A stretch of 62,965 bases of DNA, filler included, from Neolecta irregularis DAH-3 (Eukaryota): assembly GCA_001929475.1 (NCBI GenBank). It is 11 parts of 11 records of this genome, joined end to end, with 100 filler letters (N's around TTAATTAATTAA, not from the genome) between each part and the next. Parts side by side here need not be neighbours in the genome. Positions count along the whole stretch, not along the records: positions 36,522 to 47,245 come from LXFE01003740.1; 10 more parts are not named here. The stretch is one strand, 5' to 3'. The notes beneath the pieces are model-generated. The model was given only the letters and a program-made list of their open reading frames with translations, had not been told where the DNA came from and did not search any database. This document shows, in pieces, positions 9,532 through 59,938 of the stretch. Positions within the stretch are counted from its first letter, which is position 1. Each line of letters starts with the position of its first letter. The translations under genes were made by a program, and so were the position numbers.

Positions 9532-11279
9532 ATGGTAGGTAAACGGTCCCTTCGAAGCTCCTCCAAAGGCGACGGAAAGAATACTGCCCAAGAAATTCGA
9601 GAATCTCGGAAGAAAACCTCTAAAGATTCAACGGCACTCGCAGTACAAAAAGAAGAACCCAATGATGAAGTAATGGCAATCGATGAACCAATTCTGGAAC
9701 CCAATAAGGAAGATGACGGATTAGATATCAAAGCGGGTACGTCAATTTCAAAAAAATGAAAATGGCTTATTGCTCTTTAGAAGTGCAAAGAAATGTCGAC
9801 TTGCTTGAACGTGCAGCTTCGACTTTTGATCCAAGATACACCCTGCGGGTGCTACGAGGGCTTGTTGAACTACGGAAACACTTGAACGAACAGAATTTAG
9901 GTCAAACTATCCAAGAATTTTCCCCCAATGCAGAGGGCTTGTTGAAGAATCTTTCCAAGACAGTATTCTTGATTCAACACAAGAGATACTAACCGAGTAG
10001 ACCAGTATGGATGTAGATGGGACTACCAAAGATATCCTTCCCGAAGTCGACATCTATCTATATATTTTGGCACAGCTCTTCTATCTTGATACCAAAGACC
10101 TCGAACAAGGCGTCATATTGTCCAATCAAGCTATTGAAAAAATCAGAGCGTACAATCGAAGATCACTAGATGCTCTAGCTGCAAAAGTCTACTTTTACTA
10201 CGCACGATTCTATGAATTAGCTGGAAAATTACCGGAAATCAGACCGTTCGTTAAAATATCTTGAGCAGTCTAATTCACCAGAACACTTCTTGCTGCTCAT
10301 CGGACGTCTACTCTTCGAAATGATGTCGAATCGCAAGCGATGATACTGAATCTTCTTCTTCGCAATTATATTTCGACCTTGTCGTATACGCAGGCTGATC
10401 TTCTTGTTTCTAAAACGATATTTCCTGAACATGCGAGCAGTAACCTTCACGCTCGACATTTGTACTATCTCGGCCGTATAAGAGCTATTCAACTGGATTA
10501 TTCCTCTGCTCATGCTAATCTTCTTGGGGCTTTACGAAAGGCGCCTCAAGGTGCTGCGGCGGCGGGGTTCATTCAGGCTTGCCAGAAATTGAACATTGTC
10601 GTCAATTTACTAATGGGGGAGATTCCTGAACGAGGTATATTCAAGGAACGTATTCTTGAAAGAAGCTTGACTCCCTATTTTGAGGTTGTCCAATGTGGGT
10701 ATGTTTTTGTGGATGTGGGCTTATATAAGCCGTTCGTGTTGGTGATCTCAACAAATTTACGGAAGCCCTCAAAGAACATGCATCATCTTTCCGAAAGGAT
10801 GGGACGTATACTCTGATCCTTCGGCTTCGTCACAATGTGATCAAGACTGGTATCAAGTCGATGACCGTTTCTTATAGTCGTATTTCACTGCGAGACATTT
10901 GCTTGAAATTGCATTTAGACAGTGAAGAGTCGGCAGAATACATTGTTTCCAAGGCAATTCGGGACGGCGTGATTGATGCCACGATTGATCATGAGCGAGG
11001 GTACATGCAGAGTAATGAAGTGATGGATGTCTATAGTACCAAGGAACCTCAGAGTGCTTTTCACGAGCGCATTTCATTCTGCATGATTCTTCACAATGAG
11101 AGCGTCAAGGTATGGGTTCTTTGAAATACAAGTCTTAGCGGTAGGCAATGCGATATCCGATGAATGCCAAGAGCGCGGAAATGGAAAGCGCAGAGACTAT
11201 GAGAGAACGGGAAAAGCTTGCTGCTGAAATTGTTGAAGACATGGAGGATGACGAAGAAGGTGATTTAGGCGACTTTTAA
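9532..11279 (+). CDS. RPN3: 26S proteasome lid subunit Rpn3; 5 introns
   Basis: [56 protein letters not shown]. Confidence 0.96.
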
Positions 11280-29033: not shown

Positions 29034-30161
29034 ATGCTTTGCCAAACGGCTATTCGTCCTTTAGCAAATGCCTCAAAATCTATTCCGTATGGGGATCCTT
29101 TTTTCGAATGCTATATTAATACCAAAATCCAGCACTCGAAACATGGCGACTTTGAGAGAAATTGAAGGACGATTAAAATCAATTCGGAATATTGCAAAGA
29201 TTACAACTACGATGAAGACAGTCGCTAGGTACGCCCATTCTTACTTCGTCAACCCCGAGTCTTCTCCATTTTATGATAATCATCACCAAGAATATTTGAT
29301 TTATCAGTCATGTGCTAACATAATTCTTCTAGTACTAAACTCGCCCGAGCTCAAAAAGCGATGTTTGAAGCCCGAGCCTACGGTCAAGCCAGCAATGCTC
29401 TGTTTGAAACTGCAGAAACTTCTGCTCCAAATGAAGCCAAAACTCTCTTTATCGCAGTATCTTCAGACAAAGGTCTTTGCGGAGGGATTCACAGTTCCGT
29501 GACTAAAGCAACCAAAAAGGTTCTCGCAAGTCGACCAGAATCAGAAATTGTTGTTTTGGGAGATAAATCGAAGACCCAACTTTCAAGACAGGTCCCTCAG
29601 AATCTGGTCATGACATTCAATCAGATTGGACGGGGTATCCCAACTTTTGCGGATGCGCAAACTATTACTGATCAGATTATCTCATCGGGAATTCATGCCG
29701 AGAAAATTGAAATAGTTTATAATGAATTCAGGAGTGCTATTTCATATGAACCTGCAACGGTCAGTGTCTATTCCGAAGAACTTTTCAAGAATTCTCGTAG
29801 GTCTTGCCTTAATATGGCTAACTTCTTTTAGCTAACTTTGGAATTTACGAAATCGAAGATGACGTCCTTACAAATCTCAAAGAATTTGCTTTGGCAAACG
29901 CTATCTTTTGGGCTCTTGTTGAAGGTCATGCTTGCGAAGTATATAGTTCTCTCTATAATCAAAACTAACCGACATAGCAATCCGCACGAAGAAACTCAAT
30001 GGACAATGCATCGAAGAACGCTGGAGAAATGATCAATAAATTTTCGTTACTTTATAACAGGTGCGTTCTTTATACGAGTTTGGGTTAACCATACTAGAAC
30101 TCGACAACAGGTAATTACCGGCGAACTTATCGATATTATTACTGGAGCGTCTGCCTTATAA
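29034..30161 (+). CDS. ATP3: Mitochondrial F1 ATP synthase gamma subunit; 5 introns
   Basis: ATLREIEGRLKSIRNIAKIT, SSDKGLCGGIHS, SARRNSMDNASKNA, TRQQVITGELIDIITGASAL*. Confidence 0.97.
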
Positions 30162-39701: not shown

Positions 39702-42700
39702 ATGGCGGAAGAGGGAAATCCGAAAGATCTCGAAGAATCAGTATCAACAGATGAAGCCGATGATTCCGAAGACGAAGAGCAGAGACTCAAGTATACCCGA
39801 ATTAATGGGGATATACCAGAACTGCTTAAATTTGACGCAATCAGCGCCTGTGCAATATCAAAAAAGATTCTTGTATGTTTCGAGGAGCGATTAGTCTCAC
39901 CCCAGGTTGTCGGCACGCATAATGGAAGGGTATATGTATTTGATTTCAATGGTACACAGCTACAACGGTTCAATACACATTCAGCTGCTATATTTGACTT
40001 GTCGATTGATTCAAATGGTGCTTTTGTGGCCAGTGCTTCTATGGATGGTGATTCAATCAAGTATTGTATTATATTGATATTCAGGCAGAGTTGCCGTTCA
40101 TGAGATTGAGACAAAGGAAATCCATGCGTACGAGTATAAGAGGCCAATACGCAGCGTTGCAGTTGATCCAAATTATGGAAGACACTCTGCAAGACAATTT
40201 GTGTGTGGAGGCGCTGCAGGTCAATTAATATTGACAGAACGAGGTATTTTAAAGACGCTGAAATTGGACTGATTCTTCCAGGTTGGCTGGGAAGGAAGGA
40301 CAATGTTCTAAGTCAGGATGATGGGACTATAATGGAGATTCAATGGAGAAATGAATTTATAGCCTGGGCAGACGACATTGTACGACTTATCAGCAACTCG
40401 ACTGATTTCGCAGTCCGTCAAAGTCTGGCATACTGGCTTGTCCCAACTTATTTCCGTTATCCAACGTGAACCAAATGCCCCTCGACCCGATTTATACAAG
40501 TGTCATATAACGTGGAAGAATGATCGCGACTTTCTCATTGGTTGGGCTGGAAAGATTAGTGTGATTTCAATACAGGTTTGTGCCTTATACCAGTCTTTTT
40601 TACTGAACCTCAAGAAAGACCCCTCGAGGGTACCTATTTACTTTGAGGAAGTGAGGGCTTGGTAATTTTGTTTTTAGGAATCCTTGACTAATAAACAGCT
40701 TTGATACAGACAGCATTGTCTCCGGAATACTGCCTTTTGGAATAGACCTACTTATATTATCTTATGTGGAAGAAGATGCAGATCCTGGACACGAGCGAAG
40801 AGTAATTCATATCGAGGATGGTTCGTTTACTATTTTAGCGTGCAGAGAAGCCAGAACTTAGATTGATAAATCCGTCTCATGAAGAAGTTTCTGGAGATGC
40901 TCTTGGTTTGAACGATTACATACGCCTTCAACCAAATGATTTGCACCTATGTCGATCATATCAATCCAATGTTACTTTTGTGGTTTCGCCGACAGATATT
41001 GTTAGTGTCAAGGCTAGGGATGGGATTGATCATGTTGAATGGCTTTTGGAGCGAGAAAGGTATCAAGATGCACTTGCTGCTGTTCGTCAGATGAGATCCC
41101 CTCCTGCTCATCTATCTGTGAGGGAAGTTGGCGTAAAGTATATGGAGAGCGTTTATTCTATTGGTAAGTCGTGACGGTCTTTGGTTTACATGATAGGAAA
41201 CTACAACGAGGCAGCTAGAATAGCACCGGATGTTTTTGAGCAAGATAAAGAAATGTGGGAGAAGTGGTTTTACAAGTTTTCTGATGATGGCCATCTCGAG
41301 GTACCTTCTTTTTTATCAAAGTTGAGTATCCAGGATATCGTTTCCGTGTTACCAACCAAGGATCTTCATCTTAATCCAGCCATTTACGAACAAGTCCTGT
41401 CATATTTCCTCGAAAACAATCCAGAGAAGCTCTTGGAAACTATCAAAATCTGGCCCGATGATATCTACAACATTGATTTTCTTATTTCGCAAGTGGAAGA
41501 TTTATGGTCTGAGAGTAAAGACGACAGGGTACTTATGAACTGTCTGGCCGAATTGTATATACATGTCCTACTTTTTCTCTAATTGCCTAGAAAAATGCTA
41601 AACAATTCACCTAAAGACGCGTTACACTTTTATCTCCGTCTGCGTCGTCCCGATACATTTGATCTAATCCGCCAAAATCATCTCTTGGATTCTCTTCAAA
41701 ACGATATACTGCTTCTCATGCTCTTTGATACAGAGACAGTAGAAATCAAGGATAATATTAAACGAGGATCTACTACGAAAGCGGTAGAATTACTAGTCCA
41801 ACACGTCCATACCATCCCCGCCAAAAAAGTCGTCTCTCAAATAAAAGATTATTCTCTACTGTTACATTTGTACCTTGATGGTTTATTCGATGCGGATCCA
41901 CATTTATCTTCTCCATGGGCAGATGAACAAATTGGTCTCTACGCAGAGTATGATCGACCGAAACTCATGGATTTCCTACGAACAAGTACTTCCTACTCAC
42001 TTGAACATGTTTGTCCCCCTCTTTATTGTAACGAGTTGACGTTTAGCTAGGCCAGACAAATCTGTGATCAAAGAAATTTAATCCCTGAACTAGTGTTCAT
42101 ATACAGCCGCATGGGAAATAATAAAAAGGCATTAATGTTGATCATTGAAAAATTGCAGGATGTCCAACGAGTTTGTCCTCATCTCCTGGTCAATATTCAC
42201 TCTTCAAGGCTATTGAATTTGCTAAAATGCAAGATGACATTGACCTCTGGGAAGACTTTTTAAACTACTCGATGGATAAACCACGTACCCGTCCTTACCT
42301 GCGCATCTCACGGGCAGCTTTTATCCGCGGGTTACTAGAAAATACAAATCAATCCATGGATCCGATAAAATTGATTAAACGTATTCCCAAAGGTTTAGAA
42401 ATCCAAGGATTGAAAAGTTCGCTGGTCAAGATATTACATGATTTCGAACTTGAAGTTTCTCTTTCAGTCGGTTGTGCAAATGTCCTTGAAGAAGAAATTA
42501 AATTACAAACGAGAGAACTGAGTATTTTTCAAAAGAAAGGAATGGCTATATCACGTATCTCGAATTCATAGAAATGCTAATTTTTAGTCGAGGCGGTTTG
42601 TGGGAAATGTGATCTGAATGTACTTGACCAAGGTGACAAAACTAGCAATTTCAAAGATAACAAAGGTATAGGAGAGGGCGAAATCATTGGATTTTTCTGT

Positions 42701-43295: not shown

Positions 43296-44068
<773 letters not shown>

Positions 44069-44291
44069 TTATTTGAAAAAGGTAACTTGACCTAACCCCG
44101 CTATCAGTTATCCGAAATATAAAGAGGGAGAATGGGTGGAGCGATTGGTCGACGGTGGGGGGAAATAGGAACAAGTACAAAGATGCAAGGAATATTCAGG
44201 GACCGAGATTTGATCTTTAAGGAAAAGAATAGTAGAACGACGTACCCGTGTCTATGAGAGGGTTGAAAGAGAAATAGCAAGCGAGAAGAGG

Positions 44292-44308
44292 TGAGGGTTA
44301 GGGTTAGG
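44292..44308. promoter_or_regulatory. Interstitial telomere-like TTAGGG tract about 225 bp upstream of CDC42 (duplicated across the adjacent gap)
   Basis: TGAGGGTTAGGGTTAGG; a regulatory role is inferred only. Confidence 0.35.
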
Positions 44309-44599
44309 AGATAGACGATGTGTCNNNNNNNNNNAGGGTTGAAAGAGAAATAGCAAGCGAGAAGAGGTGAGGGTTAGGGTTAGGAGATAGACGATGTGTC
44401 TGCCTTTTGGCTGCGATGATAAGCGGGGTCGGTTGGATACTGTGAACGCGTAGGAAATAAAGGAGTTGGGAGGTTGGGCTGGGACAGGAGAAGAGTTTTG
44501 GTGGTGGGTTGAGAATGGCGAGCCCAGCATCGCCCCAAGAAAAAAGGAACGATTTTGTTCATTTCCACTGTTTCAGCAGATTTCAATATAGTTACAAAA

Positions 44600-47245
44600 T
44601 CAATATTCAAAGTCATCATCTACACTAGGTCCATTGGCTAGGCTGCCTTTCTGAACCTGCTGTCTAAACATATCCGCAATCTACGTACGTGGTCAATGCG
44701 TTTCACGGTGGCAGGTATACCTGGGAACTAGTAGTAGCCTGCTCGGGCCCCTTATCCTCTCTAGTCCGAATATACCGCGGAAACCGCAACGAAATGCCCT
44801 TGTTCTCGTCGACTAATCCAATGCCAGCTTTGTACACGGGTGACAAACTCAGATCGGCACTCAATACTTCCCAAACGAGTTTATGAGCAGTCACGTCAAA
44901 CCAGACGTCGGGTTTATTCAGGCCGTCAGTAGGATGAGAATAGTAGCTTTTCGGATGAGATATTACATGCTGGGAGAGTTTTGTATAGAGTGTCTCGAGA
45001 TCTGATTCGGTGAATCCTGTTCCTATTTTACATATGGATTGATATTCTTCGCGATCGGGGTCAAAACAACCTAATAGGAAAGCACCGTACATCGAGGTAC
45101 GTTTTCCTCTTCCAAAGAAGGCGCCAAGGACGACAAGGTCTAGAGAATCGCCAATCCCTGCTAAATAGTCTTTTTTCAACTAGACTGTTGGAAAATGAAG
45201 GAGCAGACATACTTTAAGCCAATTTGAGGAACGGCGAGAGGGTTCATAGTATGATGCTTCGCCCTGCAACATTTTCACCAAGAGTCCTTCACATTTATCT
45301 TGAACGCTCTTGTCCAAAAATGTCTGAATTTCATCAATCGTGGTGCAATCTGCAAACCGAGCAAACTCGAAAACGCCCTGGACTGGAATAAAGGCATCAA
45401 ACATTTTCTCACGGCGGTATTCAAGGGGTCGCTGTAGCAATGACTAGCTAGTTATAGTTTGTAAAACAGGGAAATACCTCTCCATTGAGATACAGCAGGT
45501 CAAAGGCGAAGAGACAGACTTTGACTTTGACGTCTTCCAATTTGACGTCTTTTCGTTTTCGAGTACTTAGGACTTGAAACGGGAGTAGTTGTTTATTTTC
45601 GACGTCCCAGGCTACACATTCACAATCGAGGACAAAGCTTGTGGTGGAATCTTTAGTAAAAGAGGCTAGATTGTTGATGATGTCTGGGTACTTGTTGCTC
45701 GTATTTTCCGAATTACGACTGTATATTTTGGCGTCTCCGGAGGGGAGGAGGTGGACTTGGGCTCTTTCGCCGTCGTATTTATATTCACATGTGAATTTCT
45801 GGGATTCGAAGCGGTCTAGGACTTGGCTTATAGCCTTTGTGGGTCTTGCGAGCATTGGTTTAAGGGGGATGCCTTGCGGTTGGATGGATATGAGAAGCAA
45901 GGTACCTGGGGTGAGTTTACAAGTTTCTTGGAGCTTTTCTATGCCGTTGGTTAAAAGCTGTTCAACGACGATATCGTAGGAGGGCAATTCGCTGAGTGTG
46001 AGTGATGACTGGGAAAAGGATACTTGTAGACGCTTTTGATGATGCGTTCTGCTTTGCTGATGCGTTCTGCTTTGTTGTGTTCTGTTTTGATGTGTTCTGT
46101 TTTGTTGTGTTCTGCTTTGCTGATGTCTGTTGGGGTTGAGGCGACAGCCGCTTGGGCGAGGGCGGAGAGGACTGTTTTCTCTGCGAGATGGATTCGAAGT
46201 TTCCCTTCGAGGGAGCGAATGAGGTATTTTGCTTCTTGGCCTTTGCATGAAGAGAGTAATTTTTTGATGATTGCGACTTTTCTTGTTTGGCTCTAGAGTA
46301 AGCAGGGGTAAAAGGACGAGGTACGGAGTGTCCGGTGGCAGTTGCTATTTCTTTCAAGTCGTTGAGAACGGTTTGGACGGTGAGGGATTTTGGGGTTGAG
46401 AGTGTAGGCTGGTTCATTCTTGAATCCTGCAAGTTAGGAGAGAGGGAGAAGAGGTACCTTTGCGATGATTCCGAGGTCTCCAATTTTTGCATAGTCTGAT
46501 TTTACCTGGGGTGAGTGGGATTACAAAGTGTGATACCTGGGGGTGAGAGGGATTGCAAAGTGTGGTACCTGAGGGACTGAGCGGCCAGTGCTTCCGCTGA
46601 TAGCCTTGATCAAGAGGGATTCGCCTATTCCGAGTTCGACGCCCTGGTAAGCAGGGGCTAGGCGGTTTATAGTGAGGTATATGCAGGAGGTGAGATCATT
46701 TGGGGTGAGGGCGATGACAGCAGTGAAGAATTTTGAGCAGTAGGAAGTGATTTCTAGACGTTTTGTGGTTGATTCAGCGAGGGCAAACATTTCGCAGAGG
46801 GCGGAGTAGGGGACTGGGGAGTTTTGTGGCCATATGACAGATTTTGGGGTAGTATTGTCTGGAGGATTGTCTGGGATATCATGGCACGAGGGGATATTTG
46901 GATCCTGGGGTAAAGTGTTTGACAGAGAATCCGAATCTGAAGCAATCTTTTTCGACATTTTCGTCTTTTTCGTCTTTCTCGGCTGTTCAAGAGAATCCGA
47001 GTCGGTAATCTTTCTCGACTTTTTCTTTCTCGGCTCATCAGAATCCGAGTCAGTAATCTTTCTCTTTCTCGGCTCATCAGAGTCGGCAATCTTTTTCGAC
47101 TCTTGAGAATCCGAGTCAGTAATCTTTCTCTTTCTCGTCTTTCTCGGCTCATCAGAGTCGGCAATCTTTTTCGACTCTTGAGAATCCGAGTCAGTAATCT
47201 TTCTCTTTCTCGGCTCATCCGAGTCAGTAATCTTTCTCTTTCTCG
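44600..47245 (-). CDS. CDC9: DNA ligase I, 5' truncated; N-terminal and internal tandem peptide repeats
   Basis: [18 protein letters not shown] adenylation motif, [39 protein letters not shown]. Confidence 0.95.
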
Positions 47246-47951
47246 NNNNNNNNNNNNNNNNNNNNNNNNNNNNNNNNNNNNNNNNNNNNTTAATTAATTA
47301 ANNNNNNNNNNNNNNNNNNNNNNNNNNNNNNNNNNNNNNNNNNNNAAACCAAAAGTTAACAATACAGATAAGGTTAAGAGAGTAAATAACTTGCAGATAG
47401 AGATAATTGATAGTTGATTAAAAGTATTGAAGTGTTGAAAACAAAGAATCCACACCACTACTGTTATTCCTTAATTCATTCCAGTCAAGAATCATTGTTG
47501 CATAATCTGTACCCACCAAGATGCATTCCAGCACAGTTCCTCAATCAAGTAAGGAAACTTAACATGCATTTCGGTTAAGTATCGTAATCCATTATAGTAG
47601 TCGAGGTTTCCTCTTGGTGTCTCCTGTCGCTGTTCATAGCTCATACCTATCCTGTCGAAGAAACTCAACAATAGCCATGCTCAGGATACTTTGTGTCGAT
47701 GTTTCAATGTATTCCACCAGCTTTCATAATCTTCCTTAATGCCCAGCTGATAGAGTAGGTCATTTAGCTGTTAAAAGAAGTAATTACGAATTTTGCTTAT
47801 GATTCTCACTAGTCCTTCTCCCCAATCCCTATGGTCACGAGACGCCACATCAATCCAGGTCTCTCTCATAAGTTCTTGAGTACCATTTACTTTGTCCAAT
47901 ACATAAGATGAGGCCTGTGATGAACATGAGGTAGTATCCGAACTTTCCTCA

Positions 47952-48043: not shown

Positions 48044-48449
48044 CAGATTGTAAAACACCAGCTATGTCTGGGCTTATATTATCCTTAGGTATGTCTAAGG
48101 GAACCCAGTACTAGCTTAACTATGCTAGCTACTCTGGTATTAGTACTATATATAGTACTAGCAAGTGATCACTAAAAGGTGGTCAGTTGCACTGTTTATC
48201 AGTCTATTATATTATACCTAAGAGGTGGTCAGTTGCACTTTTTATCAGTAGCAACTGAGTTACTCCTCTAAGCTATTTATACCAGTATAATATGATTACA
48301 TAATAGTGGCTTGATCATATCAAGCCACATCAGCCTAACCTCCACTATCNNNNNNNNNNNNNNNNNNNNNNNNNNNNNNNNNNNNNNNNNNNNTTAATTA
48401 ATTAANNNNNNNNNNNNNNNNNNNNNNNNNNNNNNNNNNNNNNNNNNNN

Positions 48450-56063: not shown

Positions 56064-57976
56064 TCTTTCATGTGTGTTGCAATATTTAGTCCCAAGGATC
56101 TCTGTACCTCTACCTGGTTGACCAGATCCCATATGGATAAGAATAAGTAGGTGATCAAGAAAACGCTGGACTTGATATTCGTATTGCTGTACAATGTGTG
56201 ATTTCCATACAAGTTTACTTCCAGTTGTATAATATGCCATTGCTTCAAGTCGTACAGGATCATTAAGAATAGATTGTAGTAGCCATTCACTAGATCCTTT
56301 GAATCCGTTGATTTCATTTGTCAGAAACGATTCGCCAATATTCTTTTGTCCGAAGTCATCCTTCATTCCTAAGATGTTAATAATAACCTTGTAATATACA
56401 TAAAAATACCCAAAAAGTCAAATTTTAATAAAGGATTATAGTCAAATAGTAGCTTTTCCTTTAATGTATATGTTGCTGCAAATACTTGTTCAGCCATAAA
56501 CCGCCGGAGATCTGACATCGCTAACTCAGTACACCGATAAGTAATGACTTCGCGTGCTTCATCCCAGTAAGTTGTCATTGGTGCAACTGTAGTTCGACCA
56601 ATTGCCATGCCGTATAGTCGGTTACTCAAAAGTTCTGACATTGGACCATCAGTTGTATTGAGAATCCATTTCTCACAATCAATTTGGAAATAGCTTTGGA
56701 ATGACTGGTTATCTTCCTTGAGTAAATCGTAATTTATGAGATTATATTCCAGAACGATTAGTTGTATGCAGTATATTAGTTTCGAGAGATATGGCGTAAA
56801 TTTATGTGGTTCCAAAAAGTTGCTTCCATTAGTGTTTAGACTGAGCGCCGCAGAAAAACTAATGATAGGTGATTCAAACACATTAAATTCGAGAGTATGA
56901 GCAATGAGACTATAACTCATTGATAGACATGCTTGATCCAAACTTTCATTGTCGCTCGGGCAGGAAAAGGTAGTATTAATATGAATTAATTGTTGGGGAG
57001 TAAGGTTGAATATCGCGATCCCAGGAAATAAATTATTGCATTGTATGCGATAAATAAAACATATCAGCTTTTTCCATATAGCGAAATATGATCTTGCTGT
57101 ATCTTCATTCTGCAAGACTTTAAATGGTTTTTGGCTCATTGTTCCTGACTGAAAGGTATTAAGAATTCGTGCATTTGCAAATGTCAACTTTCCTTTCCCT
57201 CTTTCATGTCTAGCAGACTTGAGCGATTTATTGAGTAGTCGATCAATGCTTCTACAGATGGCTTCCAATGACGTTTCATTGCTTCTTGTATTTGGGAGTT
57301 GATAAGCCTTGATGATATCAGCCCATGGAAGTCCATGCAAATATTCTCGATAACCCGTTTTTTGCATCCATGGTGTGTTTTCCGAGTTGTGTTCAATTGG
57401 CTGGATTGACATATGACGTTTAATAAGAAGGGTTTGTGAATCTCTGAAAGTTTGCAGTGTTGTTTCTTTTATAGAACTGATAACTGAATTATCGATGACT
57501 CTGCTATCTGCGACAAGAACACGGAAATATTTCAGAAAACTTTTGTGTGCGAAAAAGGTTTGCAGAATCGCTTCTTCCCATACGGGATTGGAATCCTTTT
57601 CATTCTTCCACTGGTGTTCCAATCGGGAGTGCAATTTTATCCTTTTGAGACCTATACAGCAGTAATTGCATCCTTCTGCCCTGCATTGAAAAGCATTCTG
57701 GTCAATGATATTCAATTCTTTAATTGCTGTTGTAATTCTACCTGGATAAACTATATCGGTCGGATTCCTTATCTCGAGGTGCGATAGTTCTTCTAGAAGA
57801 CGTTTCTTCTTTCCCCTGAATATACCATGTTTAGTACTTATATGAAGATCTAAATGTGACGGTCGAATTCCACTGCGGTGCTCAAGACAGATGAGTACCC
57901 CAAATTCAGGAAGAAATTTGAATATTTCTTTCCATATCATTTTGGGTATAGTCACCGTTCTTTCAACGCTTTCCAT
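56064..57976 (-). CDS. DUF3505 (OrsD-like)/C2H2 protein of the fungal telomere-linked RecQ-helicase-associated family, with start of a tyrosine-recombinase-like domain; 3' truncated
   Basis: VLICLEHRSGI..HISTKH; FQCRAEGCNY..HSRLEH; LQTFF..KYFRV; TPWMQKTGY; after 41-nt intron 56369-56409: KDDF..GESFL..LIHMGSGQPGRGTEI. Confidence 0.72.
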
Positions 57977-59938
57977 CGTAGCAAGTTTGACCTATCAAGT
58001 GAAGCACAATCTGGGTTCTTTGTAATGATGGAATTCAAAAAGAAGACTACAATATTAAAATGTATTTCACTTGAAAGTAGATCATTATACCGTATTGAAA
58101 TGAACGGTCAATATGTGAGTAAGATAATGATTGTAATGAGTGTAAGTATGGTATGCAATGGTTAGGAAATCAGGAAAAAGGGCAGCACACTAGAAGAGAA
58201 AGATATTTGGCCAAGAGAGAGATATAGGCAAATGGTAACGTATGGAGAGAACAAAGCTAATAACCAGCATGGAGCTTAAACTAGAAAAAATAGCCCAAAG
58301 TTTATTGCCGTTAAAACTATATTCAAAATATTATACCTAAAGATCAGACTCAAATTCCAATCGAACAAATGATCTCTATTTACTTCCTTGATTGTATCCA
58401 AATTTTGCAAAAGGGTTTTAAGAGTTGGGTATACAAATGCGTCCATAGGTGTATGTATTGCAGTCTGGTTCATCGTTTTATGTTCATCGTTGATAAAGAG
58501 ATGAAATAGCTTCTTCTGGGGTGTGGCAATGGATTTACCTTCAATGTCGTGACCGTCCTTGTTGTAGAGAGCGCCAGGTCGAGGTCATTGACGAGTTTGG
58601 GGTCAAATAGGCGAACACAGGGGCGACAAGCAGGTGGCTGCATTGGCCGGCCTCATAGACTTTGCGCAAGTAGCGAGTTATCCACAGCAGCTGTGGAGAA
58701 TGGAATGGGGCGAGCACAGCCTTGACGGATGGTGGTTGATTGAGTGTGGGCAGTAGTTGATTGCAGGCGATGGCTCATTGGCAATAGGCGGTGGTTGGCT
58801 AGAGTTGATGGCTGATTGACTGCAGGTTACCGCGAGCACAGGTCAGCGAGAGAGGGATCTGGGAGGAGAGATGGGGGTTGGGCATGTGGTACTCTGCAGG
58901 TGAGTGGCTGGGACAGGAATGCGGAGGAAATACAGGAGTGTTTATTTAAGCAGACCGAGTACTAGGAGGTGGTATGTGAGACTGGTATGCAAGGCAGAAC
59001 GCCAGGGGGTTTGCAGGACTTTGTGTGTAGTGTTCGTGGAGCGAGGCTTGCTTCTGCGGGTTATGACGAGGCAAAGGAGTGTTGAGAGGGGCTCGCTGAC
59101 ATGGAAGGTGTTTCAGGCGGCGGAAGATGCAATTCAGGCGGAGAACACGTAGTCTGAAGGCGGGACAAAGCACTGCTGCTACTGCTGGGCATCAGTCAGG
59201 CAGAAGTGTCAGGAGTAGGTCTGCGAGCAGGACAAAGCAATGCTGCTGGGCATTGAGCAGAGGGAGCAGCAGAAACACACAGTCCGTGGCTGCGGGGATC
59301 GTTGGAGGAATGGGAGCCGCTGGGACATGTCGAGGGAGACAAGGTTGAAGGACGAGTGCAAGCCTGTAAGGACTGGGATTTACGCCACCTCTCCTACTTT
59401 CCTCACTAATCTTTCCTCATGAAAAAGGAATTCAATCAAAACACATGCTATTATAAAAAATAAATCAATTAAACTCACGCCAATCTAAAAAGAAATAATA
59501 CTTTCCACTGACCAGTCGATCTCTGATATCTGATATTTCCTTACCATGCCATCCATCCATATGGCCACAGAGCTGTGGCGTCCCCGCGTCCCAGCCAACT
59601 ATGCAGACAGTAGCAGCTTCCCTGAATTACTCGCCGTCCAGGCCATTAGTACCCTCCATCTTCTTCACCTCATTCTCATTTGGTAGCGCGAATCCACTCC
59701 TCGTATCTCACAATTAGCGAGCGTCTCCTACTAAGCCATCTTTAACTTTGTTGTATAAACCCAACAGTTTCAATAGGAGCAAGAAAATCCGGTGTATGTA
59801 ATTGATATTTTAAACCAATGTGGTTTCTCGAGAGTATTATAATTGATTAAAAATTCACTATTTTCGAATGGCATGAGAAACAGGGGATTAGGGATGAGGT
59901 AATCGAGTTCCGTTTACAAAGTGAGCAGGTGTTGCCAC

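Follow-up and report, generated by a model that had tools for sequence, protein, structure and literature searches.

A tandemly doubled mini-intron in the DNA ligase I gene of Neolecta irregularis, with a candidate origin in CAGGTA microhomology

Recursive splicing is known from ratchet points in the long introns of Drosophila, where AG abuts GT and stepwise removal, proceeding from 5′ to 3′, gives the same mRNA as removal in one step (summarized in bioRxiv 10.1101/006163). Among fungi, a zero-nucleotide exon has been documented for BOT1 of Cryptococcus neoformans, where it divides a 375-nt intron into 210 + 165 nt (outlined in bioRxiv 10.1101/224170). Stwintrons and other complex intervening sequences place two U2-type units at one fungal intron position; the inner intron of a stwintron splits the donor, branch or acceptor of the outer one, which makes two ordered steps compulsory, and it has been suggested that such sequences arose through small duplications of splice signals (as presented in PMC5639578 and PMC7138796). 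Introns may also be gained by tandem duplication of exonic AGGT, in which case the duplicated exon becomes a new intron at a new position (as abstracted in PMC3265369 and PMC4974935). Here we describe a doubled mini-intron in the DNA ligase I gene of Neolecta irregularis DAH-3, found in a stretch of 62,965 nt of draft contigs joined by N-linkers, the whole of which was analysed and is called the window below. We consider it fairly probable (about 0.7) that a pre-existing intron was duplicated in tandem, likely by way of CAGGTA microhomology, that the resulting 63 nt are fully removed, that the duplication was probably neutral, and that no route of removal is obligatory.

The doubled intron lies on the minus strand at 46506-46568, and the sequence there is exactly as a preliminary description of the locus had quoted it: an exon ending in CAG, a unit of 32 nt, a unit of 31 nt, and an exon beginning with GTA. 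Unit 1 (46537-46568) is a complete 32-nt mini-intron that starts GTAC, carries CTCAC at 46543-46547 and a run of C, and ends in CAG; unit 2 (46506-46536) is a complete 31-nt mini-intron that starts GTAT, carries CTCAC at 46511-46515, and also ends in CAG. The two share a GTAY start and a CTCAC branch-like motif followed by a C-run. At their junction lies an inner AG|GT (46535-46538), in which the 3′ splice site of unit 1 passes directly into the 5′ splice site of unit 2 and which would be a zero-length exon if used; across this junction (46531-46545) the C-run is followed by CAG and then by GTATCA. Each of the six splice elements (two GTAY, two CTCAC, two CAG) is whole and uninterrupted in the genomic sequence; the units follow one another and are not nested.

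That the units are diverged copies of one mini-intron with no exon between them, as had been proposed, is borne out by their alignment, in which 28 of 32 columns are alike. The differences are three substitutions (at unit positions 4, 14 and 21) and one additional C in the C-run, and none of the four touches GTA, CTCAC or CAG. Tandem Repeats Finder (TRF) reports the repeat at 46503-46575 with a period of 32, 88% matches, 2% indels and a score of 111; its extent reaches 2.3 copies because CAGGTA recurs at the boundary between unit 2 and the downstream exon. By the same measure, the duplicated stretch comprises the intron and 3-7 nt of each flank only, the exons themselves not being duplicated. 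A blastn search within the window matched each unit to its partner only (25-nt core, 92% identity, E ~7e-5) and found no other copy of the unit, the remaining matches being of 13 nt or less with E of at least 0.26. Over the window, a loose scan for any abutting pair of intron-like segments returned 7 junctions, where 20 shuffles gave 3.6 on average, and the ligase pair was the only one within a gene whose halves are alike. Another abutting pair with alike halves, at 48172-48263, lies inside a transposon-like non-coding repeat.

The message from this locus is seen in an assembled contig of run X2, which is registered as 'DNA?' and available as contigs only, yet contains a spliced contig of 2067 nt. 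On the minus strand this contig skips 33, 34, 33, 32, 32, 31 and 63 nt, all bounded by GT and AG, and its pieces of 504 + 46 + 101 letters around the doubled intron, when ambiguous letters at the boundaries are allotted to one side or the other, correspond exactly to exons of 501 + 48 + 102 nt. Depth of X2 over the site equals that of this single contig (46/87 and 35/87 of its depth in two bins). The mature message is without both units, and the removal of the 63 nt is exact. Translation of the spliced coordinates joins ...SVPQ to VKSDY..., as had been anticipated, and the public protein P0003 is identical across the junction, so the public annotation drops all 63 nt too. Were all 63 nt retained, an in-frame TAA would be met at the 16th codon. 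Neither 31 nor 32 is a multiple of 3; either unit kept alone gives a frameshift, which upholds the corresponding statement of the preliminary description.

The host gene (44600-47245, minus strand) has eight intervening sequences, of 63, 31, 32, 32, 33, 34, 33 and 40 nt, of which seven are given by the X2 contig and the last, at 44681-44720, is deduced from P0003. Judged by its domains, and in agreement with the preliminary description, it is an ATP-dependent DNA ligase I of the CDC9/cdc17 type, with an N-terminal DNA-binding, an adenylation and a C-terminal OB domain: successive exons match Pfam DNA_ligase_A_N (PF04675), DNA_ligase_A_M (PF01068) and DNA_ligase_A_C (PF04679), and the catalytic exon (P0001) contains the adenylation motif KYDGERAQ. 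This exon is 100% identical to 'DNA ligase 1, partial [Neolecta irregularis DAH-3]' of NCBI (777 residues, P0003); the next named matches are from other fungi at 59-74%, the 74% being that to 'ATP-dependent DNA ligase Cdc17 [Saitoella coloradoensis]'. By analogy with yeast CDC9/cdc17, the Neolecta gene is probably essential. The exon upstream of the doubled intron (46569-47245) encodes a tandem-repeat-rich N-terminus and the start of DNA_ligase_A_N, and its 5′ end is cut by the end of the contig; the X2 contig covers 46566-47069. The downstream exon (46458-46505) is 48 nt long and is delimited alike by the X2 contig, the spliced translation and P0003. One of the RNA-confirmed introns of this gene, at 45873-45905 (minus strand), ends in AAG, not the usual CAG or TAG.

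The boundaries of the doubled intron suggest how it may have arisen. On comparison of the flanks, CAGGTA stands at all three of them: at 46566-46571 it is made up of the final 3 nt of the upstream exon and the initial 3 nt of unit 1, at 46534-46539 it spans the inner junction, and at 46503-46508 it is made up of the final 3 nt of unit 2 and the initial 3 nt of the downstream exon (the Val codon GTA). The identity between the two outer flanks amounts to 6 nt (3 + 3, CAG|GTA), as compared with 0-4 nt in 24 introns of the window, selected as set out below, only 2 of which reach 4 nt. This layout of repeat, spacer, repeat, spacer and repeat, together with the 6-nt flanks, fits microhomology-mediated tandem duplication. 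Two further in-frame tandem arrays are found in the coding sequence of the ligase gene, one of period 30 between the N-terminal and adenylation domains (46046-46131, minus strand), at a site where the Saitoella ortholog P0005 has no repeat, and one of period 75 consisting of acidic and basic repeats at the N-terminus (47024-47235, minus strand); slippage-type events would seem to recur at this locus.

The order of events that we infer is as follows: originally, the DNA ligase I gene would have carried a single phase-0 mini-intron of about 31-32 nt, bordered by two CAGGTA hexamers, the left one formed by exon CAG and intron GTA and the right one by intron CAG and exon GTA. Slippage, or microhomology-mediated tandem duplication between these hexamers, would then have produced two complete, abutting introns, which later diverged by three substitutions and one indel. 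From its birth the duplication would have been functional, since each of the three routes of removal, whether it starts with unit 1, starts with unit 2 or pairs the outer donor directly with the outer acceptor, would give the same mRNA. This convergence suggests that the duplication was probably neutral, and it would explain how such an event could arise without cost in a gene of essential type.

How the locus compares with the systems described above can now be stated. In layout it resembles a zero-nucleotide-exon recursive site: as at the Drosophila ratchet points, AG abuts GT and stepwise removal would give the mRNA of one-step removal, a pyrimidine run and AG being followed directly by GT, and neither inner site scores below the median of the window introns. 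That family, however, is defined by observed intermediates, whereas use of the inner sites is predicted here, and its members lie in unusually long introns, whereas the Neolecta sequence, at 63 nt in total, is not much longer than the genome norm and has halves of normal intron size. Those halves are copies of each other, unlike the known zero-nucleotide-exon cases, and either could be removed first, whereas a ratchet point works from 5′ to 3′ only. With stwintrons the pair has in common the two U2-type units at one intron position and the possibility of consecutive removal reactions; it differs in that no signal is split, the units stand side by side, and removal in one step is possible. A stwintron in the strict sense was considered and rejected, because no splice element is interrupted.

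The cases of exonic AGGT share with this locus a short AGGT-bounded duplication after which splicing restores the frame, here as seen in the X2 contig and the public protein. They differ in the segment that was duplicated, an exon there and an existing intron here. No new intron position is created in Neolecta; one intervening sequence is lengthened, or nominally split in two at the same site, and the earlier suggestion that the locus displays a route to intron gain was in this respect overstated. Fission yeast, a related fungus, frequently undergoes microhomology-mediated tandem duplication, with the same layout of short direct repeat, spacer, repeat, spacer and repeat (reported in outline in PMC8639346); those events are mostly subclonal and reversible, whereas the Neolecta duplication, by a mechanism that we take to be similar, was kept long enough for four differences to accumulate. 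In a limited search, the titles and abstract openings returned no published tandem duplication of a whole intron, which is not proof of absence.

To place 63 nt among the introns of this fungus, 450 of the 667 stop-to-stop open reading frames (ORFs) of the window were scanned against Pfam and neighbouring exon fragments of the same domain were bridged. Picking the shortest canonical candidate gave 18 introns, which with six RNA-confirmed ones from the ligase gene make 24; their lengths are 31-42 nt with a median of 35 nt, a choice that leans short, and the six RNA-confirmed introns, which exclude the 63-nt one, measure 31-34 nt. When candidates were selected instead by their fit to Pfam profile coordinates, and only those with a misfit of 0 or 1 kept, 15 of the 18 pairs remained, with introns of 32-47 nt in 14 and of 104 nt in one; the bridged exon pairs of AKR-1, eIF2-beta and GH3-2 offered no well-fitting intron and were left out of this count. 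A finder relying on ORF continuity was too noisy to be of use (4035 candidates, flat over 20-120 nt), and a length histogram based on signals only showed a weak excess at 28-43 nt. Introns of the window are very short for a fungus (e.g. those at 45180-46457, minus strand, and at 40048-42587 and 9963-10281, plus strand), and lengths of 31-42 nt are among the shortest with which we are acquainted in fungi. The genome itself comprises 14.5 Mb at 44% GC with an N50 of 16 kb (PMC5309816), in keeping with the base composition and the fragmented state of the window; the main text of that paper has 0 occurrences of 'intron' or 'splic', and its supplements may give intron statistics.

The single long intron belongs to an ATP synthase gamma gene (29229-29332, plus strand), is about three times the usual length and is supported by homology: the profile misfit is 0 for 104 nt as compared with at least 10 for shorter candidates, and a continuous reading of the residues ...KTVA|STKLARAQ... 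requires the removal of exactly 104 nt. Within this intron there is neither an inner AG|GT nor a tandem repeat. The splicing machinery is thus apparently not limited to introns of about 35 nt. The preliminary description had stated that introns here are about 35 nt long, which holds, and had taken this to mean that 63 nt may require two steps, an argument weakened by the ATP synthase gene.

Splice sites were scored with matrices built from the 24 introns of the window. Unit 1 reaches 7.2 bits at its donor and 6.4 bits at its 3′ end; the corresponding values for unit 2 are 7.0 and 4.5 bits, and leave-one-out medians for the 24 introns are about 5.6 bits for the donor and 4.3 bits for the 3′ end. 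The inner acceptor (6.4) is therefore stronger than the outer (4.5), and the inner donor (7.0) is equal to the outer (7.2). Because the inner sites score as well as the outer ones, stepwise removal is plausible; because of the 104-nt intron, it is not forced by length.

Alternative explanations concern both the existence and the history of the tandem. Assembly of two alleles or two reads of a single intron in tandem might be suspected in a draft window with 26 runs of N and one evident gap artefact, an exact 76-nt repeat that flanks a 10-N gap downstream of the ligase stop codon (44259-44400) and is most likely an unmerged overlap from scaffolding. We regard such an artefact as very improbable. 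The units differ at four places and have no exact run near 31 nt in common, so that the tandem cannot stem from collapse or expansion by a k-mer assembler, and the sequence words across the junction of unit 1 and unit 2 exist only if the units are physically adjacent. Both units, moreover, are present in a second assembly: a separately built Logan contig of run X1 (3836 nt, depth ~398) spans 44600-47039 free of gaps and crosses the junction, and no N lies near the doubled intron. This contig differs from the window at just two letters, 44706 and 44730, both outside the doubled intron, and is therefore not a copy of the deposited assembly; X1 may come from the same specimen, its support being that of a second assembly and not of a second individual. 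It could also be proposed that a mobile intron inserted beside, or into the end of, a resident intron, given that Introner-like elements multiply in some fungi (as summarized in PMC3609843 and PMC4457414). Over the 63 kb of genome that the search for dispersed copies covered, the unit is not dispersed, which makes a mobile intron unlikely; 80 ligase loci from metagenomes give only chance words of 12-15 nt, and a unit of 31-32 nt is far shorter than the Introner-like elements described in those summaries, which exceed regular introns in length. We therefore hold this explanation to be extremely improbable.

Other alternatives accept the duplication and differ on how it is spliced. The 63 nt may be a single ordinary intron in which the outer GT is used with the branch site and AG of unit 2, the inner AG|GT, like the branch site of unit 1, remaining as an unused relic of the duplication. 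This has something in its favour: the spliced contig shows the 63-nt skip only, with no half-spliced form among the X2 contigs (though contigs drop rare forms), the public protein is compatible with a single intron at the site, the ATP synthase gamma intron implies that the fungus is not restricted to about 35 nt, and folding of the RNA at 46490-46585 reveals no unusual structure (z = -0.54). We nevertheless find it doubtful, given that the inner sites match or exceed the outer ones in strength and stand at the spacing typical of the genome (31-42 nt), and that splicing by intron definition normally prefers the nearest compatible pair (PMC7138796, as summarized there); exclusive use of the outer sites would need an unexplained bias. 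The opposite extreme is a spliceosome unable to span 63 nt, so that the units must go successively through a zero-length exon. Consistent with such a limit, lengths of 31-47 nt account for 20 of the 21 introns that were selected through RNA evidence or profile fit, and in the signal-only count intron-like segments exceed expectation at 28-43 nt alone (89 seen, ~66 expected), with no excess at 60-67 nt. Against it, on homology and not RNA evidence, a 104-nt intron without inner AG|GT is the only one that fits the junction in ATP synthase gamma, and we consider obligate recursion unlikely. Regulated unproductive splicing appears quite improbable: occasional removal of one unit would give a frameshifted, stop-containing ligase mRNA and lower expression, and both units kept would expose the TAA, but no such form occurs in the X2 contigs (weak evidence, as contigs drop rare forms), there is no hint of regulation, and retention of any intron would have the same effect.

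Where no route is obligatory, the question becomes which one prevails. When sites compete in fungi, the smallest internal intron that can be formed is reported to be chosen first (as summarized in PMC7138796), and together with the zero-nucleotide-exon pair of Cryptococcus this leads us to rate stepwise removal of the two small units, by a slight preference, as the majority route. Some removal of the 63 nt in one step is likely, and a mixture is plausible; by our own estimate, none of the routes is obligatory. A stronger version, in which the 32- and 31-nt units behave as introns in their own right, successively removed by way of a genuine zero-length exon, and in which duplication of whole introns between AGGT sequences is general, strikes us as rather speculative and would be less likely to hold than to fail.

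Several points weigh against the account we prefer. The four differences between the units spare the signals, but four random changes would spare the 11 inner signal bases out of 63 with a chance of about 0.46 (our own estimate); as this is expected about half the time, it is no evidence of constraint on the inner sites. The X2 contigs, in which rare intermediates or lariats cannot appear, do not tell one-step from two-step removal, and removal of 63 nt in one step would be feasible given the 104-nt intron. The argument from microhomology is circumstantial, as the duplication unit equals the intron length, the breakpoints cannot be located, and the comparison draws on 24 introns of one window. 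The single-copy ancestor, finally, is one that we infer, no relative with a single intron having been found among 80 ligase loci from a scan of metagenome contigs. These loci include no close relative (56-68% identity for the best segments along the query exon, 34-54% for the longest tblastn matches). A break at residues 225|226, where the doubled intron interrupts the Neolecta protein, is absent from all 70 loci that cover the site, the other 10 not reaching it, although a short, stop-free, in-frame intron could hide inside a gapped match. The position of the doubled intron is thus not common to these loci, which does not give the age of the intron. In 12 of them the match ends at residue 364, which fits the position of the fourth intron of the Neolecta ligase gene.

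The remainder of the window offers some observations in its own right. Linkers of the form 44 N + TTAATTAATTAA + 44 N occur at 10 places (e.g. 47246-47345 and 48350-48449), in addition to six gaps of 10 N; as the window consists of joined contigs and is not a single piece of chromosome, gene neighbourhood across the linkers is meaningless. A gene for a small GTPase of the Cdc42 type lies at 43410-44070 on the minus strand (Pfam Ras, E 7e-20), with four introns of about 33-47 nt as judged by eye. The contig at 47346-48349 is transposon-like, with a repeated GTGCAACTGACCACC motif and broken reading frames, and an ORF of 540 residues at 56372-57991 (minus strand) contains a Pfam OrsD domain (E 7e-11), of a type frequent in transposon-related genes of fungi.

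The doubled intron is a natural construct, such as those who study splicing would normally need to engineer: a pair of minimal-sized introns at full strength, directly abutting, in a gene of essential type. With it, the choice that a spliceosome working by intron definition makes between competing sites close together could be tested directly, as could the ability of a zero-length exon to function in so small a space. The locus also represents one concrete and probably neutral means of doubling the length of an intervening sequence, and suggests that an intron can be duplicated through microhomology supplied by its own AG|GT junctions. If removal does proceed stepwise through a zero-length exon, this would be the smallest recursive-splicing unit known; and if whole-intron duplication between flanking AGGT microhomologies is general, it would be an overlooked means by which intervening sequences are lengthened and multiplied in genomes with short introns.

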